Source: an uncultured Ignavibacteria bacterium (GTDB lineage: Bacteria; Bacteroidota; Ignavibacteria; Kapaibacteriales; Kapaibacteriaceae). From it: a stretch of 64,000 nt of DNA. A program made the translations under genes and the position numbers. Shown in pieces: positions 16,088 to 25,358 of the stretch (positions within the stretch are counted from its first letter, which is position 1; each line of letters starts with the position of its first letter). Where the stretch lies: contig CAJAIA010000001.1 in assembly GCA_903939735.1 (NCBI GenBank), positions 39,169 through 103,168 of the forward strand, read 5' to 3'. The notes below the pieces were generated by a model that was given only the letters and a program-made list of their open reading frames with translations, was not told where the DNA came from and searched no databases.

Positions 16088-16831
16088 TCACTTTCCAACC
16101 ATTGGACGCAGTCCAATAAATGCCAGCATTCTTCCCGCCTGCTCCCCATCTCGGCGATGTGAGTGCCAGCGTTGATCAGTCATTGTGCATGATTCGTCGG
16201 TGATGATCGATTGCACCGGCACGCCGGCTTCGATCAGTTGCGCCCGAAGTGCAGCGTGGTTATCAAAAAGCCATTGGGATGTCGTTCCCTCAAGGGGCGT
16301 GCAGTAGGCAGGCAATGCGGTATGGACGTCATTCCGCACGACGTATGCCAATCCAGATGCACAGGGAGATAGCCATACCTGAAGATCCGTCGGTCGTGTG
16401 CCATACTGTTGTTGCATCGCCGCGATGGTTGCCGCGACAATGTTCTGCGCTGTTCCCCGCCACCCTGAGTGTACTGCCGCGATAGCATGGTGTGCTTGAT
16501 CGTAGATCACAACGCCACAGCAGTCTGCTAGCTTAACGCCAAGGAGCCATCCCGACCTATTCGTGATGATTGCGTCGGCCTGCGTTGTGGACTGAGGTGG
16601 AGCGTCCTCTACAACCTCGATCGTTGCCCCATGCACCTGCGTTACCGTGACAATTGATGTCCGCCGACAGTCGAGTGCCTCGGCAAGGGCATTGAACGAC
16701 TGTGCAACGAGCTCTGGAGAACTGGCTGGCGTGTGTCCAAATGTATACCCTGGCCAGGGGGCGAATGACGTGTCAACCAGGGTGATACCGCTAACGACGT
16801 TCCCTGTTGGTAGTGCGTGCTGAATCAACAT
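16088..16831 (-). CDS. pgeF: Peptidoglycan editing factor PgeF (YfiH/DUF152 laccase-domain protein)
   Basis: 247 aa. QVHGATIEV...ADAIITN...ADCCGVVIYD...AAVHSGWRG motifs of the YfiH family. Confidence 0.85.
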   Translation of the reverse strand: MLIQHALPTGNVVSGITLVDTSFAPWPGYTFGHTPASSPELVAQSFNALAEALDCRRTSIVTVTQVHGATIEVVEDAPPQSTTQADAIITNRSGWLLGVKLADCCGVVIYDQAHHAIAAVHSGWRGTAQNIVAATIAAMQQQYGTRPTDLQVWLSPCASGLAYVVRNDVHTALPAYCTPLEGTTSQWLFDNHAALRAQLIEAGVPVQSIITDESCTMTDQRWHSHRRDGEQAGRMLAFIGLRPMVGK

Positions 16832-18566
16832 GCCTCGAACCTACGACTTCGAATGCAATACGTCGTGACATACGCCGACCCCACTGTCCAACGCCATCGC
16901 ACAAAACCGCTTCATGCCGGCGCATCGTCCATTGGAGGAACCTTCCATCAAGTCGGCCCGTGGAGGTCCCGACTGCTATCATCTTCGTTATGTGGGGCGT
17001 TGTGTAACCTACGATGTTTCCACTGCGGCACGTATACACCCACACAACCGGACGTTGTGGTGCTGGTACGAGCGTGAGCGCTCCGATGGCAGCCACGCAG
17101 CAGCAGAAGCGCAGCGCTGCTCCCGAAACAGTAGTGGCGATGAGTGGCCACCACCACATCGCTGTACTGATGAAGGCAAGAACAATCACCATGTGTTCAT
17201 GCATCAACACCTCCTCACAGGACTGCGCCACGGCGATCACCGACTCCGCACTCGTGACGATGATTGACATGCACCACACAATGGGTGCTGCAACCCCGAG
17301 CGGTGCCGCAATCAGCAGCAGTGGAACGAGCACGAACACAGCACTGAGGAGCGGCACGACCAGCATGTTCGCTGCCACCGAGAAAAGCGCCACGGAGTGG
17401 AAGTAGAACATCGACGGAACAACGATTGATGTTGATGCTGCAACGCATACACTCATCGCTTGAAGAATCGACGGTATCCTCCCAACGAGCATGCGGGCTG
17501 CATCCACCCATCGTGGTGCAAGCACGAGGATACCTGCAACGGCCGATATCGACAGCACTGTAGAAATCGTGTCGATCCCCCACGGATCGGCAAGCGCGAG
17601 AATGAGCACACTTCCGTACAAGACGTTCAGCCCGTCAACGTCTCGTTCGTAGCGATGGCCTAGCAATGCGGCAATGCCCATAACAGCTGCTCGCAGAGCC
17701 GGACTCTCTGCTCCCGTCAGGTAGACGTAAAACATGATACATGTGCTCGTAACGATCAGCATCGTAGTGCCACGCCACCGACTCAGCAGTAGTGATACGA
17801 GGAGGAACATCAGTCCGACATGCGACCCACTGACCGATAGCATGTGTGCTGTTCCCGTTCGCTGATAGCCCAGCATCTGCGCATGCGATACACCGGTGCG
17901 ATCCCCAAGAGCGAGCGCTCGCACGACAGCTGCAACCGATGGTGTACATGATGCTTCGAGTGTAGCCGTAATGTCTGCATGGATCGTGCTTCGTAGGCGA
18001 TGCCACCACGGTGCTTCCTGTATGCGGACAGACGAAGCAACACGCACCATGAATGACACGTTGCGTTGATGCGCTATCGTCCGCACGTCAACCTCGTCTG
18101 GCAACGCAGGTGGAGCAGGCCGACTGAGATGTCCAATAGCGATGCGACGCTCACCCTGGCATGCTGCACTAATCAACGGACGCGCCTCAGTGCATAGCGA
18201 ACGCACATAGATGCACGGTAGGTCACGACCGTCCGTATGCCCCTCAAGCACATACACTGTCGTTTTCGAATCTTGGCGAACTACCGAGCTGACAACACCC
18301 TCGATTCGCACCGGCATACCGTCGAAATCCGCCAAGTCGGAGGGTTCAACCCTTGCCGCAGAACGTGATGTGGCGCAGAGTGCCAGCAGCAGGCACGACG
18401 TAACCAGCGACAGATGAAACAGATGTCTGCGGTAGGCAACAGCGGCTACGACGCCTAGGATGACGACCAGACCAAAGATGCTCTGGGGGTCCAATGCTAC
18501 CCCGCGCAGCGGGAAAATGGCAAGGCATACGTAGCAGGCCGGTATGAGGAGCGGACGACGTCGCAT
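16791..18566 (-). CDS. comEC: ComEC/Rec2 DNA internalisation channel protein
   Basis: 591 aa polytopic protein. Competence domain [30 protein letters not shown]. Confidence 0.85.
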
Positions 18567-18739
18567 GCCCTTCTGTGCTCAAACAGCGCGTCTCTGTGAC
18601 TCATCTGTGGATGTTGAAAACTTCATTCCGCGGTGGCCATGCTGCCATGGGTATTTTCGAGCTGTCACGTTGCTTCAGGACTCGTCCTCATATGAATCAA
18701 CGTCCTCCATTTTGCTACGTAGCCACAAGGAAATCTGTT

Positions 18740-19816
18740 ATGAGCCAAGAGTCGAAAGCAACCAAGGAAGCGTCATCGAAGGATGCCGCTGCATCAGCAC
18801 CGAAGGTGAGTGATGCGAAGGTAAAGGCAGCACAACTTGCGATGGAGCAGATCGAGAAAGCCTTCGGTAAGGGTTCGATCATGCGCCTGAGCGACGAACA
18901 ATCTGTTGATATCGATGCGATTTCAACGGGCTGTCTTTCACTCGATGCAGCTATCGGTATCGGTGGTGTTCCGCGTGGCCGCATCGTCGAGATCTACGGT
19001 CCGGAATCGTCAGGTAAAACAACGGTCTGTTTGCAGGTGATTGCAGAAGCGCAGAAGGCCGGTGGTCTTGCAGCGTTTGTCGATACTGAGCATGCGCTTG
19101 ACGTGAAGTATGCACAACGTCTTGGCGTCGACCTCAACAACCTCCTTCTGTCGCAGCCAGAGTTCGGCGAGCAAGCGCTCGAAATCGTTGAAACACTCGT
19201 TCGCTCCGGTGCTATTGATGTGGTAGTTGTCGACTCCGTTGCTGCACTGACACCGCGCGTCGAAATCGAAGGCGACATGGGTGACGCGCAGATGGGATCG
19301 CAAGCACGACTGATGAGTCAGGCAATGCGCAAGCTGAATGCAGCGATCGGACGCTCAAACACAACGGTAATCTTCACGAACCAGCTTCGTTCGAAGATTG
19401 GCGTCGTCTATGGTAATCCTGAAACCACAACCGGCGGCAATGCGCTCAAGTACTATGCTTCGGTGCGGATTGACGTTCGTCGTAAGGACGTCATCAAGGA
19501 CGGACAGGATATCGTGGGTAATCGCGTCCGCGCGAAGGTTGTCAAGAACAAGGTTGCTCCTCCGTTCCGTGAGGCTGAATTCGACATCATGTACAACGAA
19601 GGCATTTCACGCCTCGGCGATATGATCGATGTCGCGGTGGAATCGGGCATCATCACAAAGTCTGGATCATGGTTCTCGTTCAACGATGAGCGTGTTCAGG
19701 GTCGTGATGGCATGCGCAAGCTCCTCACAGAGAATACTGCTCTGTGCGCCGCACTTGATGAAGCTGTTCGCTCCGCGTTGCACCTGCCAACACATCAGGC
19801 ACCTGCAAAGAAGTAA
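18740..19816 (+). CDS. recA: Recombinase RecA
   Basis: Start at internal MSQESK with an [36 protein letters not shown] Walker A, and the remainder is canonical RecA. The 18575 upstream extension was rejected. Confidence 0.97.
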
Positions 19817-19819
19817 TCC

Positions 19820-21979
19820 ATGGGCATCGTCACAGCGGTCCGTCGTAACGTGAAGAATCCTTCACGGTGCTCGGTCTTTGTCGACGACGAATTTCTTGCC
19901 GCCTGCCCCATCGACGTAGCGTTGTCACTCGGTATCCGCAAGGGTATCGAGTTGACAGCCGACCTCGAACGCCAGCTGCGGCGTGAAGACAAGCGCATCG
20001 TCATGCGTCAAAAAGCCTATCGTTTCGCGACGTACAAGCCACGCACAGAGCATCAAGTACGAGCATTTCTCGCGACCAAGGAACTCACTCCCGAGGAAGT
20101 AGACGATGTGATGTCGTGGATTGTGGAGTTTCGTCTCATCGACGATGCACAGTATGTTGAACGATTCCTCTCCGCAGCATTTGAGCGCAAGCCACTATCG
20201 CGTCTCATGGCTCGTCGTACGCTCCAGAAGAAGGGCATCCCCGATGCACTTCTCACACCGGCACTTGAGCGATGGTACTCACAGGAGGCAACCGAAGACG
20301 TTGCGTACCGTGCAGCTGTGAAGAAACTGCGGATGATCGGTACCGCAACACCATCAGAGAAAGAGTCAAAACTGGTCAGGTTTCTCCAATATCGTGCCTA
20401 TCCTTGGTCAACAGTCAAGCAGGTTGTCGAGCGTTGTAAAGTCGAGGGCATACTCGCCTGCCTTGTTGCGGTGCTCTGCTGTTCTCTTTCCGCCGTCGCA
20501 CAACCGGACACGTGCGGTCGCGTGCGACTGCCGGATGTGATCAATCAGTTTCAGCCGACAACGATTCCCGTTCTCGACGCCACAGGTATGCTGTACGTCG
20601 ATAGAAAACAACACCCAGAGAACAGGGATGGAGGCGTTCGGGATCCTGATGATGTCTGGCGTGCATACCGCACGGGTACAAACCTCTACACCGAGCTCTC
20701 GCACACGCCAATAGCAGAAGGCGTGCAGCCGGATGTCGTATTCTGGGTTTCATCCGATGGTCTCGACGCGCTTGTTGTCGGACCCTATTGCTCTCAATCA
20801 ACACGTTCGGTTCGTTGTCTGGCAGTCCTCCATCGGTCCTCCCCCCGAGGTCCATTTGGTGATCCCACTCCAATATCTATCCCCGGTGTGCTGGATCTCG
20901 GTCGAAACTTCTATGCCTGTATGAGCGAAGACCGGTCGACGTTGATTCTCGCTCTCGATCGTATAGATGGTACAGGTGGTCTTGATCTGTATGTATCGCA
21001 ATCCTGCAAGGGTACCTGGTCGGCGCCGCGAAACCTTGGCACAACCATCAATACGCCGGCGTTTGACGGGGCTCCATGGATCGGACCAGACGGAACAACG
21101 TTGTACTTCGCATCGAGCGGACGCGACGATCGGTTGGGCAAGGCTGATTTATATGTGACGCGCCGTCGCGATACGACATGGACATCATGGACACAGCCGC
21201 GTAACCTTGGTCCGTGTGTAAACACGATCGAGGACGAGACAGCCATTTCTCTACTGCCGTCCTTCGACTCAGTCATGATTCATTCATGGGATGCCGAATC
21301 TGGTCGAACCGGCATCTACATTGCTCCCCTAGCCGCCGATTTGCGGCCAGCGCCGGTGCTGACCCTGCGCGGAACCGTTGTTGATGCCGTCACACGACGC
21401 ATCATTCCGCATGCGGAGATTGTTCTGACATCGCCGTACAACTGCACGTCATGGACGCTTCAGAGCGACACAATCAACAGTGTGTTCTCTACCGTCATAC
21501 CGCAACGCACTGCGTTGCATATATCGACCAGTGCTAATGGCTATACCACGACCACCAATGATGTCCGCACGCAAACGCTTGATTCGTCGTCGACAATGAT
21601 GCTGACGGTGGCGTTGTTCGATACCACACGCCCACTTGCTTCGCTCTACTTCGAACGTGGAAGTGCGGAACTCACGCCTGCATCGACAGATTCCTTGCGC
21701 ATGATTATTGAACGTCTGCGTCAACGATCACTCTCCTTCGTTGTCCGCGGATACACTGATCCCATCGGATCGCCAGGATCCAATGCCGATCTCTCTCGTC
21801 GTCGTGCACGGGCTGTTGCAGATTACATGGCGACACACGGTATTGACTCCGCATCGATCGTCGAGGAGGGCCGCGGCGTTGAGCATTCAACGGCTAAGCG
21901 CACCTCGGTTGAACGACCAGAGAGTCGCCGTGTGGATTTGTTCCCACGCAGTATGCTAGTGCGCGACAAGAGTCACTGA
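19820..21979 (+). CDS. recX: Single ORF: complete RecX (about aa 1-207) continuing in-frame into a signal-peptide-like segment, PD40/TolB-like beta-propeller repeats and a C-terminal OmpA-like domain
   Basis: RecX three-helix repeats (YRFATYKPRTEHQVRAFLATKELTPEEV...), starting 3 nt after the recA stop. Then GILACLVAVLCCSLSAVAQP. Then PD40 repeats (DGTTLYFASSGRDDRLGKADLYV). The C-terminus is OmpA-like (RGYTDPIGSPGSNADLSRRRARAVADYM). No stop between the two parts. Confidence 0.7.
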   Translation: MGIVTAVRRNVKNPSRCSVFVDDEFLAACPIDVALSLGIRKGIELTADLERQLRREDKRIVMRQKAYRFATYKPRTEHQVRAFLATKELTPEEVDDVMSWIVEFRLIDDAQYVERFLSAAFERKPLSRLMARRTLQKKGIPDALLTPALERWYSQEATEDVAYRAAVKKLRMIGTATPSEKESKLVRFLQYRAYPWSTVKQVVERCKVEGILACLVAVLCCSLSAVAQPDTCGRVRLPDVINQFQPTTIPVLDATGMLYVDRKQHPENRDGGVRDPDDVWRAYRTGTNLYTELSHTPIAEGVQPDVVFWVSSDGLDALVVGPYCSQSTRSVRCLAVLHRSSPRGPFGDPTPISIPGVLDLGRNFYACMSEDRSTLILALDRIDGTGGLDLYVSQSCKGTWSAPRNLGTTINTPAFDGAPWIGPDGTTLYFASSGRDDRLGKADLYVTRRRDTTWTSWTQPRNLGPCVNTIEDETAISLLPSFDSVMIHSWDAESGRTGIYIAPLAADLRPAPVLTLRGTVVDAVTRRIIPHAEIVLTSPYNCTSWTLQSDTINSVFSTVIPQRTALHISTSANGYTTTTNDVRTQTLDSSSTMMLTVALFDTTRPLASLYFERGSAELTPASTDSLRMIIERLRQRSLSFVVRGYTDPIGSPGSNADLSRRRARAVADYMATHGIDSASIVEEGRGVEHSTAKRTSVERPESRRVDLFPRSMLVRDKSH

Positions 21980-22333
21980 TGTACACAGAGCACCTTCATG
22001 GGAATGATCTTCCATGATGGTGAGATCCCATGTGTCATGCGCATGGAGATAGAAAACAACTTCTAACTCCCCATTACGCTCACAAGCCTCGTCGTGAAAG
22101 GGCGATCGCCAGAGAAACTCATCTGCTGCCAGGAGACATGCTCGTTCGAGCTGATCTGACGTATGAAAGAGAACAACGATCTCTTCCGTGTCCGTCGGCA
22201 AATGCTCGAGCCGCATAATGATGCAATCCAGGTGGTTCTGCTGCTCTATTCGCAGATCCCGAACGCAGGCGTGCGACGTGTCCATTACTGATGTTCCGAA
22301 GATGACCGGAACGATACGTAGTATAGCTGGCAT
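21956..22333 (-). CDS. Hypothetical cytoplasmic protein (about 125 aa)
   Basis: The internal Met (MPAILRIVPV...) is preceded by a perfect AAGGAGG SD 5 nt upstream. No recognisable family. Acidic and His-rich. Confidence 0.45.
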   Translation of the reverse strand: MPAILRIVPVIFGTSVMDTSHACVRDLRIEQQNHLDCIIMRLEHLPTDTEEIVVLFHTSDQLERACLLAADEFLWRSPFHDEACERNGELEVVFYLHAHDTWDLTIMEDHSHEGALCTSVTLVAH

Positions 22334-22465
22334 ACCAACCTCCTTAAACGGTTGTTTACACTCAATCAACAGAACGAATACAACGACATATCAGATATGA
22401 AAACTACGCGATAGATCTATGAACCAACACACCGTGCCGTCAGGTGCATGAAGTCGTTCCTCTCG

Positions 22466-22538
22466 AGCGGGAAACGGGTCTCGAACCCGCGACATTCAGC
22501 TTGGGAAGCTGATGCTCTACCAACTGAGCTATTCCCGC
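22466..22538 (-). tRNA. tRNA-Gly (anticodon CCC)
   Basis: 73 nt, GCGGGAATAGCTCAGTTGGTAGAGCATCAGCTTCCCAAGCTGAATGTCGCGGGTTCGAGACCCGTTTCCCGCT. Perfect 7-bp acceptor stem. Anticodon loop UUCCCAA. 5' half matches E. coli tRNA-Gly. CCA is not encoded. Confidence 0.9.
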
Positions 22539-22545
22539 CTACGAG

Positions 22546-22910
22546 TGGAGATGCCGGGAGTCGAACCCGGGTCCGAAGTGGAAAATCCGAAGCATACCAC
22601 GTGTGTCTTCGATCTATAGGTTCTCGTCGCCTGGGGCACCGATCGATAGGTCCCACACGACCAGTATCAGTGTTTTCTTACGCTTTGCCCTGGTACACAG
22701 CTACGCGCCAGCCTGATTCAAGCGTCACCACGGGTTGAGAGCAACAGGCGGCTCTCATCGTGATGGCATGGCGTCCTAAGTCTTAGGCGGCCATGCGATA
22801 ACCGAAGTTATCTGCATGTATTGTTCGCCGGTTGTATTAACGAGCTCCACCAGCGTAGCTCGACACGCATCTTCGTGACTGTCTCACCCCGTCGAAACCG
22901 GTACATCCCC
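22546..22910 (-). ncRNA. ssrA: tmRNA (SsrA), predicted tag peptide ADNFGYRMAA
   Basis: 5' end GGGGAUGUACCGGUUUCGACGGGG and 3' end GGACCCGGGUUCGACUCCCGGCAUCUCCA form the tRNA-Ala-like domain, including the G3:U pair. Internal ORF GCA GAT AAC TTC GGT TAT CGC ATG GCC GCC TAA follows a TAA in the right context. Confidence 0.85.
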
Positions 22911-23012: not shown

Positions 23013-23930
23013 TTACACGTTCACATCTTCCGTAGCACAGAGGCCCTCGACAAAGGCCTGGACTTCTTCCATGTACCACTGCGGCGTGCTGGTTGCGCCA
23101 GAGATGCCGATATGTTGCATACCACGGATCCATGCTGGATCAATTTCATCAGTACTTTCGATGAAATACGTACGTGGATTAGACGCATGAGCTACATCAA
23201 ACAGCACTTTTCCGTTCGATGATGCTCGGCCCGCCACAAACAGAATCACATCATTCCCAGCCGCGAACTTGGCGAGCTGCGCCTCACGTCCGCTAACCTG
23301 ACCACAGATGGTATCCTTTGCGTGGAACTCAGTGGCAATCTCCTCCATCGTGTCGACGATCAGTTCGGCTACACGCCCCTTGAGCGCATCACGAATAAGC
23401 AGAAACGTCGGTCGGTCCATCGTTGTCTGGGAGAACAACACTGTCTTCTTTGCCATGTCAACTGTTGCCAGTGCCTCGTCTACCGACTTGACCACAATGC
23501 ATTGATCGTGCACAACGCCGCGCACACCGAGCACTTCGGCATGATCATACTTTCCGAAGATCACAACCTGATAGCCCTGATCCCAGAATTTGCGGACACG
23601 CTCCTGAAGCTTTGTCACGACGGGACATGTCGCATCGACTATCTCGATGCCATGCTCCCATGCTGCTCGATACGTTGAAGGGGGCTCACCATGTGCACGA
23701 ATGATCACCTTCGCTCCGGTGTTAGCCAGGCGAGGAAAATCATTGACAGTGATCGTTGTCAGCCCCTTATCCTCGAGACGTTGGATCTCTTTAGGATTAT
23801 GGATGATGTGGCCCAGGACGTAGACATTTCGCTGGGCGCGTGTTGCAGCCAATTGATCTTCAGCGATCTGAACAGTCCGAACAACACCCCAGCAGAAACC
23901 GCTGAATCGATCGATGGAAACGGTGACCAT
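23013..23930 (-). CDS. ispH: 4-hydroxy-3-methylbut-2-enyl diphosphate reductase (IspH/LytB)
   Basis: 305 aa. FCWGVVRTV, conserved Cys ligands and HNP motif (IIHNPKE). LytB fold order. Confidence 0.92.
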   Translation of the reverse strand: MVTVSIDRFSGFCWGVVRTVQIAEDQLAATRAQRNVYVLGHIIHNPKEIQRLEDKGLTTITVNDFPRLANTGAKVIIRAHGEPPSTYRAAWEHGIEIVDATCPVVTKLQERVRKFWDQGYQVVIFGKYDHAEVLGVRGVVHDQCIVVKSVDEALATVDMAKKTVLFSQTTMDRPTFLLIRDALKGRVAELIVDTMEEIATEFHAKDTICGQVSGREAQLAKFAAGNDVILFVAGRASSNGKVLFDVAHASNPRTYFIESTDEIDPAWIRGMQHIGISGATSTPQWYMEEVQAFVEGLCATEDVNV

Positions 23931-23947
23931 GGCGTTACTTACCCACC

Positions 23948-24652
23948 TTAGATGTTTGTGAACGCGGAGACGAGCGAATAGGTCTTTTGGTATCCGTCTA
24001 CGAGCTCAAGAATCCGCTGAACTTGGTCGTCGATCGTACAATGTGTGGTGTCGATCTCAACCGCACCCTCAGGCTTGATAAGGGGGCTTACCTCGCGCTC
24101 ACTATCAAGCTTATCACGTTCGATGATGTGACGGCGAACAGTTTCCACATCGAGATGCTCGCCACGTTGGTCGGCATCAATCACACGACGTCGCACTCGC
24201 TCGTCGACGTCTGCAACGAGAAACACTTTGATCTCTGCATGTGGAAACACGACGCTCCCGATGTCACGTCCGTCCATCACGACGCCACCATGAAGCCCAA
24301 GCATGCGCTGACGTTGAACTAACGCTCTGCGAACGCGTGGAAACACGCTGACTTGACTCACATTGCTTGTGACGGCAGCCTCGCGAATCGCGCGTGTGAC
24401 GTCCTCACCGTTGACCAGAACGCGTTGTCCGTCAGTCGTCGGCTCGAGTCGAATGTCGAGACTTTCTGCTAGCTCGCCAAGGGCCACATCTTCGAAGGTT
24501 GTATCACGCTGAAGTGCAGCGAGTGTCACTGCACGATACATCGCACCAGTGTCGATATACACATACCCGAGATGTTCGGCGACCTTTCGAGCCGTCGTGC
24601 TCTTTCCGGCACCGGCAGGGCCGTCGATTGCAATGGTAAGACGTTGACTCAT
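23948..24652 (-). CDS. cmk: Cytidylate kinase
   Basis: IAIDGPAGAGKSTTARKVAEHLGYVYIDTGAMYRA P-loop and NMP-binding motifs. Start taken at the internal Met just after the upstream gene's stop (the longer ORF to 24769 overlaps the HAD gene). Start position uncertain by a few nt. Confidence 0.88.
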   Translation of the reverse strand: MSQRLTIAIDGPAGAGKSTTARKVAEHLGYVYIDTGAMYRAVTLAALQRDTTFEDVALGELAESLDIRLEPTTDGQRVLVNGEDVTRAIREAAVTSNVSQVSVFPRVRRALVQRQRMLGLHGGVVMDGRDIGSVVFPHAEIKVFLVADVDERVRRRVIDADQRGEHLDVETVRRHIIERDKLDSEREVSPLIKPEGAVEIDTTHCTIDDQVQRILELVDGYQKTYSLVSAFTNI

Positions 24653-24656
24653 GGTG

Positions 24657-25358
24657 TCAAAGATACCCCAAAACTTGCCGTAAAAGGGTTGTGGTTGCGT
24701 TGGCTGGCGCGAGCGAGAGGATGACATGTGCAGCTCCTGCATCACGTAGTTCCTGATCGCTGTGCACACCCGTCGTCACGGCGATGCACGGTATTCCATG
24801 AGCTCGAGCACAGTCGACGTCCCCGATAGCATCACCGATAATCACGGCATCCGACGGACCGAAGCTTGACTGTAGGGATGCATTCACGGCTCCAATGGCT
24901 AGCGGTGGAAGCTCACGTCGATCAGCATGATCGCCACCGTAAGCACCCGCACAAAACACCTTGGGCATACCAGCCATCGATAGTTTATGCTGCGCAATAC
25001 TGTCGATATTCCCAGTCAGCAATCCGCATGTAATCCCCTGTTCAACAAATGCATTCAGCGTCTCAACTGCTCCATCGAGCACCTGGAGTGTTGACGGGGT
25101 GATCAACTCAACGGCGTGAGCTGCCATGTCTGCGGTGAAATCAAGCCACACGTCATCGACAGCCGATCGTGGAACGCCAGCGGCGTCGACGATATCGTAC
25201 ACAAGGCCACGATCCGTGCGACCGGCAAAGGACATTCCTTCGACAATCGGTTGCACATCAACGCCAAGGAGCGTCCGAAATGAGCGTACATACATTTCAC
25301 GGCCGATCCCGTGATCGACACGCAGGAGCGTGCCGTCGATATCCCAAAGTGCTAGCAT
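24657..25358 (-). CDS. HAD-superfamily hydrolase (HAD-IA phosphatase-like)
   Basis: 233 aa. N-terminal DIDGTL (DxDGT) motif I, and C-terminal GDAIGDV motif IV. Confidence 0.75.
   Translation of the reverse strand: MLALWDIDGTLLRVDHGIGREMYVRSFRTLLGVDVQPIVEGMSFAGRTDRGLVYDIVDAAGVPRSAVDDVWLDFTADMAAHAVELITPSTLQVLDGAVETLNAFVEQGITCGLLTGNIDSIAQHKLSMAGMPKVFCAGAYGGDHADRRELPPLAIGAVNASLQSSFGPSDAVIIGDAIGDVDCARAHGIPCIAVTTGVHSDQELRDAGAAHVILSLAPANATTTLLRQVLGYL

Follow-up and report, generated by a model that had tools for sequence, protein, structure and literature searches.

We examined a 64,000-nucleotide stretch of DNA from an uncultured Ignavibacteria bacterium (GenBank assembly GCA_903939735.1, contig CAJAIA010000001.1, positions 39,169 to 103,168 of the forward strand), which we call the window and whose own numbering is used throughout. 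Directly behind recA, the window contains an open reading frame (ORF) of 719 codons in which RecX is followed, in frame and without a stop, by a protein with PD40 repeats and an OmpA-like peptidoglycan-binding domain. RecX is a regulator of the RecA filament that binds RecA and limits filament extension, and every characterized RecX known to us is a free cytoplasmic protein. A reading made from the sequence alone had described this arrangement, had called a fusion of this kind topologically unworkable, and had offered an assembly error (a lost stop or an indel), an unusual mode of initiation, or a genuine fusion as explanations. We found that its description of the domains and of the hydrophobic segment between them holds, and that its topological objection and the assembly-error option do not. 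The ORF is one genuine gene, conserved across a bacterial lineage. The two parts are joined by a segment that, judged from its sequence, has every property of a cleavable signal peptide following the Q-rule of Bacteroidetes, under which cleavage leaves a glutamine at the new N-terminus. We consider it probable that RecX stays in the cytoplasm, that the C-terminal part is exported, and that cleavage between A227 and Q228 makes two proteins from one gene. The features are as follows, with a slash marking a predicted cleavage site here and below.

18740 to 19816, plus strand: recA, 358 amino acids (aa) from the ATG at 18740, matching Pfam RecA (450 bits) plus RecA_C
19820 to 21979, plus strand: the fused ORF, made up of recX, a putative internal signal peptide, a PD40 propeller, a carboxypeptidase-regulatory-like (CRD-like) sandwich and an OmpA-like domain; full-length homologues are known
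19820 to 20446, plus strand: the RecX module, aa 1-209, recognized by Pfam RecX_HTH1-3, NCBIfam, AlphaFold2, Foldseek and phmmer and predicted to be cytoplasmic
20447 to 20500, plus strand: a putative signal peptide of type I in internal position (aa 210-227), with the sequence GILACLVAVLCCSLSAVA and a hypervariable hydrophobic core
20492 to 20503, plus strand: the predicted signal peptidase I site A225-V226-A227/Q228, with the putative cut between nucleotides (nt) 20500 and 20501
20516 to 21334, plus strand: a beta-propeller with PD40 (TolB-like) repeats, approximately aa 233-505, from Pfam PD40 and AlphaFold2
21356 to 21619, plus strand: a CRD-like beta-sandwich, approximately aa 513-600, from AlphaFold2 strands at aa 513-599 and from PF13620 on homologues
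21638 to 21949, plus strand: an OmpA-like peptidoglycan-binding domain, approximately aa 607-710, from Pfam OmpA, Foldseek and invariant motif residues

The fused ORF starts with an ATG 4 nt past the stop codon of recA and encodes a protein 719 aa long. Pfam placed RecX_HTH1, RecX_HTH2 and RecX_HTH3 at aa 63-203, PD40 at aa 410-446 and OmpA at aa 610-698. The Pfam and NCBIfam matches and the 4-nt gap confirm the earlier description of a complete RecX that follows recA and runs in frame into an exported PD40/OmpA protein. Base composition is even across the junction between the two parts. An AlphaFold2 model built from an alignment of 27 sequences had a mean predicted local distance difference test score (pLDDT) of 84.9 and contained two confident modules with a low-confidence hydrophobic helix between them. 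In this model the last RecX helix continues into the hydrophobic segment, and pLDDT is below 50 at aa 212-231. Neither a second recX nor a second copy of the exported part was found within the window.

Searching 5.8 billion proteins for full-length homologues, we obtained approximately 70 clusters of proteins 700-740 aa long that contain RecX, PD40 and OmpA, with 40-98% identity and 98-100% query coverage. The named full-length homologues stem from metagenome-assembled genomes (MAGs) of Ignavibacteria or Kapabacteria. One of them, P0001, is 98% identical to the window protein; its cluster, drawn at an identity of at least 90%, has 33 members that are mostly 719 aa long and come from NCBI, ENA, JGI and Logan assemblies. 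When we compared the RecX and exported parts with one genome per species (GTDB) using tblastn, the two parts shared one stop-to-stop ORF in approximately 38 species. Conservation of the fusion in related genomes was the test that the sequence-only reading had named for a genuine fusion, and the approximately 38 species and 70 clusters bear the fusion out. Purifying selection acts on both halves; of the two, the RecX half is better conserved, as in L004, L008 and L018 where identity is 57-60% in the RecX half versus 39-49% in the exported half. Such conservation of both halves in one ORF across dozens of independent assemblies is far beyond chance.

In all related loci whose contig extends far enough, recA is immediately upstream of the fused or split recX, as it is in the window; the exception is the distant member L080. 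A search of 1.8 billion cluster representatives with the RecX part alone brought up more distant fused members (P0153, P0205, P0208 and P0213), which are 28-36% identical to the window protein in RecX. The first of these, with 29% RecX identity, is encoded in L080 (4001-6265), away from recA and between a gene for a FlgD_ig-domain protein and dnaN-recF-dciA. The position of this fusion upstream of dnaN, recF and dciA rather than beside recA indicates that the fusion travels as a unit. Some loci of the Kapabacteria/Ignavibacteria type (L006, L015, L019, L027, L032, L034, L044 and L045) carry other organism labels, namely Hyphomicrobiales, Patescibacteria, Chitinophaga pinensis, Bradyrhizobiaceae and Didemnitutus. 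These are probably wrong labels of MAG records or mis-binned contigs.

The first 209 amino acids are a complete RecX comprised of an N-terminal beta-hairpin domain (RecX_N) and three three-helix repeats. Pfam RecX_HTH1 matched the window protein with 36.1 bits (cut-off 26), all three RecX_HTH repeats exceed the Pfam cut-off in close relatives, and PF27462 (RecX_N) is recorded on homologues. NCBIfam RecX models align to aa 1-209. In the AlphaFold2 model the module has a pLDDT of approximately 88, Foldseek matched it to the RecX structure 3D5L over 204 columns (TMt 0.76), and phmmer matched it to the RecX entries 3D5L, 3C1D and 3E3V. Among stand-alone proteins, the closest relatives are ordinary RecX proteins 205-236 aa long whose alignment covers residues 1-205 of the query, showing that nothing of RecX is missing from the module. 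Its beta-hairpin and three three-helix repeats are the same as those of OraA/RecX from E. coli (3C1D) and of the long RecX of the Gram-positive type (3D5L), its length equals that of a stand-alone RecX (approximately 205-220 aa), and its gene is likewise located directly downstream of recA. Characterized RecX proteins are free, whereas the window RecX continues into a putative signal peptide and a 490-residue exported protein.

Its sequence features mark the C-terminal part as an exported envelope protein. This is supported by a peptidoglycan-binding domain, by invariant cysteines, and by homologues that carry N-terminal signal peptides; two homologues of this part from Bacteroidota that are not fused to RecX, P0072 and P0076, begin with signal peptides ending AxA/Q. 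The propeller region is all-beta in the AlphaFold2 model with pLDDT mostly 85-95, and it holds the invariant Cys232 and Cys466. Only one PD40 repeat passes the Pfam cut-off and there is no TolB model among the NCBIfam matches, and the likeness to TolB, which combines an N-terminal domain with a six-bladed PD40 propeller that binds Pal, is one of resemblance alone. For the beta-sandwich, PF13620 is among the precomputed matches of homologues and gives weak matches on L035 and P0208. The OmpA domain belongs to its Pfam family with 60.3 bits against a cut-off of 27.2, and Foldseek matched it to the C-terminal domains of OprF, Pal, OmpA and PorE with a root-mean-square deviation of 2.3-3 Å. Across the 27 sequences D647, N655, R662 and A663 of the motif TD...N..LS..RA are invariant; in characterized domains of this type, the Asp and Arg of the motif bind the peptidoglycan stem peptide.

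The order of PD40 propeller, CRD-like sandwich and OmpA_C-like domain is the same as in PorE (PG1058, type IX secretion) and in the CHU_0125 family of OmpA-like proteins for outer-membrane integrity in Bacteroidota, and Foldseek matched the C-terminal domain of PorE (6TOP). NCBIfam OmpA models of the PorE/CHU_0125 type gave the best alignments, over aa 363-695. PorE has a TPR module and a lipoprotein signal and the window protein has neither, carrying RecX at its N-terminus; there is no Pfam match to a TPR module in the window protein and no lipobox before Cys232. We rejected membership in PorE or CHU_0125, for which the scores were 85.9 against a required 600 bits and 95.3 against 620 bits over aa 363-695 only. 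Because of these low scores and the lack of both a TPR module and a lipobox, the C-terminal part is not filed under either name.

The hydrophobic stretch between the two parts (aa 210-227, nt 20447-20500) consists of 18 uncharged residues, and R205 and K207 immediately upstream supply an n-region. The junction thus contains a positively charged n-region, a hydrophobic h-region, small residues at positions -3 and -1, and Gln at +1. What differs from a standard signal peptide is location; the segment starts at residue 210 here and is N-terminal in orthologues where the gene is split. Hypervariability in the family alignment is limited to the segment that links RecX to the invariant Cys232, with length and sequence varying freely there. 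Anchoring the alignment on the conserved Cys, we found that 71 of 75 fused proteins have a small residue followed by Gln 2-12 residues upstream of it, with one of the 71 (P0067) being doubtful; the background frequency of Gln in fused proteins is 3.2%. Position -1 is Ala in 50 of these proteins, Ser in 14, Cys in 3, Gly in 3 and Thr in 1, and position -3 is mostly Ala, Val, Leu, Ser or Gly. The 14 residues preceding the cleavage position have a mean Kyte-Doolittle hydropathy of 2.07 and a pairwise identity of just 16%, versus 55% for the 14 residues after the conserved Cys. The pattern combines the (-3,-1) rule of signal peptidase I with the Q-rule. Conservation of the site suggests that signal peptidase I probably cuts between A227 and Q228.

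The other exported proteins of the window provided a control. All seven N-terminal type I signal peptides recognized within the window end small-x-small/Q and belong to ORFs with the following starts.

4098, 7266, 27623 and 44409, plus strand: signal peptides ending small-x-small/Q
63259, 55486 and 44390, minus strand: signal peptides ending small-x-small/Q

With Gln after small-x-small in seven of seven cases, the organism follows the Bacteroidetes Q-rule. The signal peptide of ORF 4098 ends AVA/QP, like the fusion, and the uncharged stretch is 14-18 residues long in the window signal peptides and 18 in the fusion, with a family median of 18.5. A further product, from ORF 52659 on the minus strand, is lipoprotein-like instead (...FTTGC). 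The fusion shares with Q-rule signal peptides a hydrophobic region followed by small-x-small/Gln. Such signals usually come after a short N-terminal n-region, whereas the one in the fusion is internal, behind a folded domain of 209 residues. The Q-rule describes Gln at +1 that is later cyclized, and Ignavibacterium album is assigned a Q-value of 77% (PMC5837995); Bacteroidetes signal peptides of this kind have also been reported elsewhere (PMC10653852).

Natural variants of the locus gave further information about the junction. In three species (L035-L037), recX ends ...VLTSLPS at a stop codon and is followed by a spacer of approximately 10 nt and the ATG of the exported gene. The signal peptides in these loci are MRFPLATLCLSLVTLHTSLLC/QPNGC... 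or MLPTTVFRFLSNVACHLTLATLFVTA/QPNPC... (...LFVTA/QP...), and the same exported protein follows. In a second split form, found in L082/L083 (protein P0070), RecX bears an acidic tail and, after a longer spacer, a separate downstream gene carries a signal ending ...LLVTNGMA/QGPTTC. In every split variant the break coincides with the first residues of the hydrophobic segment, showing that this segment is the signal peptide of the downstream protein. In L043 there is a 205-aa RecX alone with the usual downstream neighbor directly after it; the exported part is lost. We also found short fusions of approximately 430 aa (L044 6001-7305, L045 6001-7308, P0073, P0125, P0126, P0129, P0130 and P0132) comprised of RecX, the hydrophobic segment (for example ...RPATA/Q), the beta-sandwich and a degenerate OmpA-like end. 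The propeller is absent from these proteins, and their OmpA-like end has no Pfam OmpA match.

The sequence-only reading had suggested that orthologous recA-recX loci be compared, taking a stop codon and a separate start at the junction as a sign of two ordinary genes. Most of these loci are fused, in agreement with a genuine fusion, and a few do have a stop followed by a separate ATG. In a neighbor-joining tree of RecA, the split and RecX-only loci are nested in fused clades, which hints at secondary fission of the fused gene; RecA is 85-97% identical among them and resolution is weak, and we do not rely on this tree. Because the fused, split and RecX-only states interconvert, RecX evidently works without the exported part. 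This fits the two parts ending as separate proteins.

We infer the following topology, cleavage and fate of the RecX tail. The recX gene would have become fused in frame with the gene that comes after it in the recA operon, encoding a Sec-exported protein resembling PorE/CHU_0125, with the join exactly at the start of the type I signal peptide of that protein so that the signal peptide is now internal. RecX (aa 1-209) would be synthesized first and remain cytoplasmic. The hydrophobic segment would then engage Sec in an N-in orientation, and the C-terminal 490 residues would cross into the periplasm, with the OmpA-like domain binding peptidoglycan there. Signal peptidase I would cut after A227, leaving a mature periplasmic protein with Gln228 as its first residue and a candidate for conversion to pyroglutamate. 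RecX would keep the signal peptide as a C-terminal membrane tail, which may be a stable anchor or may be removed by a site-2 protease or a signal-peptide protease.

The view that a cytoplasmic RecA regulator could not precede an exported protein is countered by known proteins in which this N-in/C-out arrangement is ordinary. In RseA, ToxR, CadC, MotB and TssL a hydrophobic segment that follows a cytoplasmic domain inserts in this orientation. Like the fusion, each of them consists of an N-terminal domain in the cytoplasm, a single hydrophobic segment and a domain in the periplasm, and in MotB and TssL the periplasmic domain is also an OmpA-like peptidoglycan binder. These proteins differ from the fusion in being stable anchors that have no signal peptidase site, and their cytoplasmic domains are not homologous to RecX. 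The existence of such bitopic regulators and stators makes the topology of the fusion feasible.

Among natural bacterial proteins, the nearest precedent known to us for a cut at such an internal site is, by analogy, FbcH of Bradyrhizobium japonicum, reportedly described by Thony-Meyer and co-workers in PNAS in 1991 as a cytochrome b/c1 precursor that gives two proteins from one gene. Signal peptidase reportedly separates the two products of FbcH at an internal signal peptide, and the same logic is proposed here; the upstream partner in FbcH is a polytopic membrane protein belonging to one complex with the downstream partner, whereas here it would be a soluble cytoplasmic DNA-repair regulator that is not known to be linked to the downstream protein. 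Engineered constructs studied in an endoplasmic reticulum (ER) system show that internal signal sequences can be processed by signal peptidase and that cleaved signals are told apart from anchors by how long their hydrophobic region is (PMC2120157). Our literature search on bacterial internal signal peptides returned nothing relevant, only ER and viral work, and a search for RecX linked to OmpA, a membrane anchor, a fusion or Kapabacteria found no such report in the library covered. All parts of the window protein are of known kinds; it is their combination that we have not seen described, a soluble DNA-repair regulator that precedes an exported envelope protein by way of a putative internal Q-rule signal peptide.

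Several points weigh against a cytoplasmic RecX and an exported protein separated by cleavage. Gln is absent from the site in 4 of the 75 fused proteins, and since the fused proteins are related to one another, counts such as 71 of 75 are not counts of independent events. The uncharged stretch is 17-23 residues long in most members, which is enough for a membrane-spanning anchor. A folded domain of 209 residues ahead of the signal peptide is unusual for bacterial signal peptidase I substrates. In the RecX module itself, RecX_HTH2 (25.4 bits) and RecX_HTH3 (25.2 bits) of the window protein are both slightly below the Pfam cut-off of 26, and the NCBIfam equivalog cut-offs for RecX are not reached, the best being PRK14135 with 82.4 bits against 240. 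The latter scores indicate that the window RecX is a divergent RecX.

The strongest alternative, which we regard as possible although rather doubtful, is that the segment is an uncleaved signal-anchor. The product would then be a bitopic inner-membrane protein comparable to RseA, ToxR or MotB, with RecX permanently tethered through one helix to a periplasmic, peptidoglycan-bound module. RecX would act only at the membrane, or the envelope would control its activity. This would suit the persistence of a fusion, rather than mere adjacency, over deep divergence and after relocation away from recA. It would also suit the length of the uncharged stretch, which has a median of approximately 18 residues, reaches 26-40 in some members and could span the membrane, and the run of the last RecX helix into the hydrophobic segment in the AlphaFold2 model. 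However, an anchor has no need of small-x-small/Gln, yet 71 of 75 proteins keep this motif while the segment around it drifts. The segment is also indistinguishable from the cleaved signal peptides of the same genome, and the split and RecX-only lineages show RecX functioning without a tether. On these grounds we prefer cleavage at the junction.

An improbable reading is that the fusion is itself functional, with RecX delivered to the inner membrane by the internal signal peptide and either held there or released by signal-peptide or site-2 proteolysis in step with export of the peptidoglycan-binding protein. Such an arrangement would couple regulation of RecA to the state of the envelope, or would localize it beside ComEC, the DNA-uptake channel encoded divergently next to recA across the clade. 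The evidence gives this reading of a membrane-gated RecX no support.

We also considered whether the exported protein is made separately by internal initiation of translation at the junction, the long ORF being a by-product of read-through. In the split orthologues the exported protein is indeed started separately, at an ATG, and in-frame ATG, GTG or TTG codons occur close to the start of the hydrophobic segment in some fused loci. The sequence-only reading had named an internal GTG as the only candidate start in the window, and our scan for these three codons agrees; between the end of RecX and Cys232 there is only the GTG at V218, which lies inside the hydrophobic core and would give a truncated signal that has no charged n-region. 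Across the junctions of the 35 loci scanned, no start codon is conserved at any position, and L005, L020 and L023 have no in-frame ATG, GTG or TTG at all. Internal initiation would not select against stops between the two halves, yet there is none in approximately 38 species. A scan of 18400-22600 for promoters and terminators found nothing at the junction, which is also a point against separate expression. Internal initiation is thus very unlikely as a general mechanism.

There is next to no chance that an assembly or sequencing artefact, or a pseudogene, merged two genes through a lost stop or indel: relatives with split genes exist and a single mutation could interconvert the states, but the P0001 cluster consists mostly of 719-aa proteins from many independent assemblies of four sources, and approximately 38 species and 70 clusters preserve the frame. 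Purifying selection on each half and a uniform base composition across the junction also speak against an artefact.

Upstream of recA and divergent from it is comEC (16791-18566, minus strand; Pfam Competence and DUF4131). The recA ORF as called mechanically starts at a GTG at 18575, 55 codons before the ATG at 18740 where homology to RecA begins, and this 5' extension (18575-18739, plus strand) is probably untranslated. On the other side, an ORF encoding 137 amino acids that we call orf137 (21956-22369, minus strand) runs toward the fusion and shares 24 nt with its 3' end. This ORF has no Pfam match, and nearly all related loci, the RecX-only locus L043 among them, carry it in the same place with 25-51% protein identity. 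This conservation of sequence and position marks orf137 as a real gene. The order comEC, recA-recX fusion, orf137 is kept in approximately 35 related loci, and the adjacency of a DNA-uptake channel gene to recA and recX may have a meaning, or none. Farther downstream and also on the minus strand are a tRNA-Gly(CCC) gene (22465-22538) and, 6 nt apart from it, a tmRNA gene (22545-22910) with the tag peptide ADNFGYRMAA. These are followed by ispH/lytB (23013-23930) and cmk (23948-24769), which are syntenic in most related loci.

These results bear on annotation, protein targeting and the control of RecX. Database names for the fused proteins ('RecX family transcriptional regulator', 'OmpA family protein' and 'OmpA-OmpF porin') are half-correct, as each current label misses half of the protein. 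The natural split, short and RecX-only variants are ready-made experimental controls. If the protein is cleaved, it would be a rare natural case of a bacterial signal peptidase I site after a large folded cytoplasmic domain. One gene that serves two compartments is relevant to protein targeting in general and to signal-peptide predictors, which inspect N-termini only. To our knowledge, the RecX proteins studied so far are free in the cytoplasm and their dose relative to RecA matters. In a whole lineage where RecX is synthesized at the N-terminal end of an exported protein, the question arises of how the dose and location of RecX are set. Were RecX gated at the membrane, this would amount to control of a recombinase regulator in the manner of an anti-sigma factor. 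The most likely outcome is simply that one gene gives two ordinary proteins.

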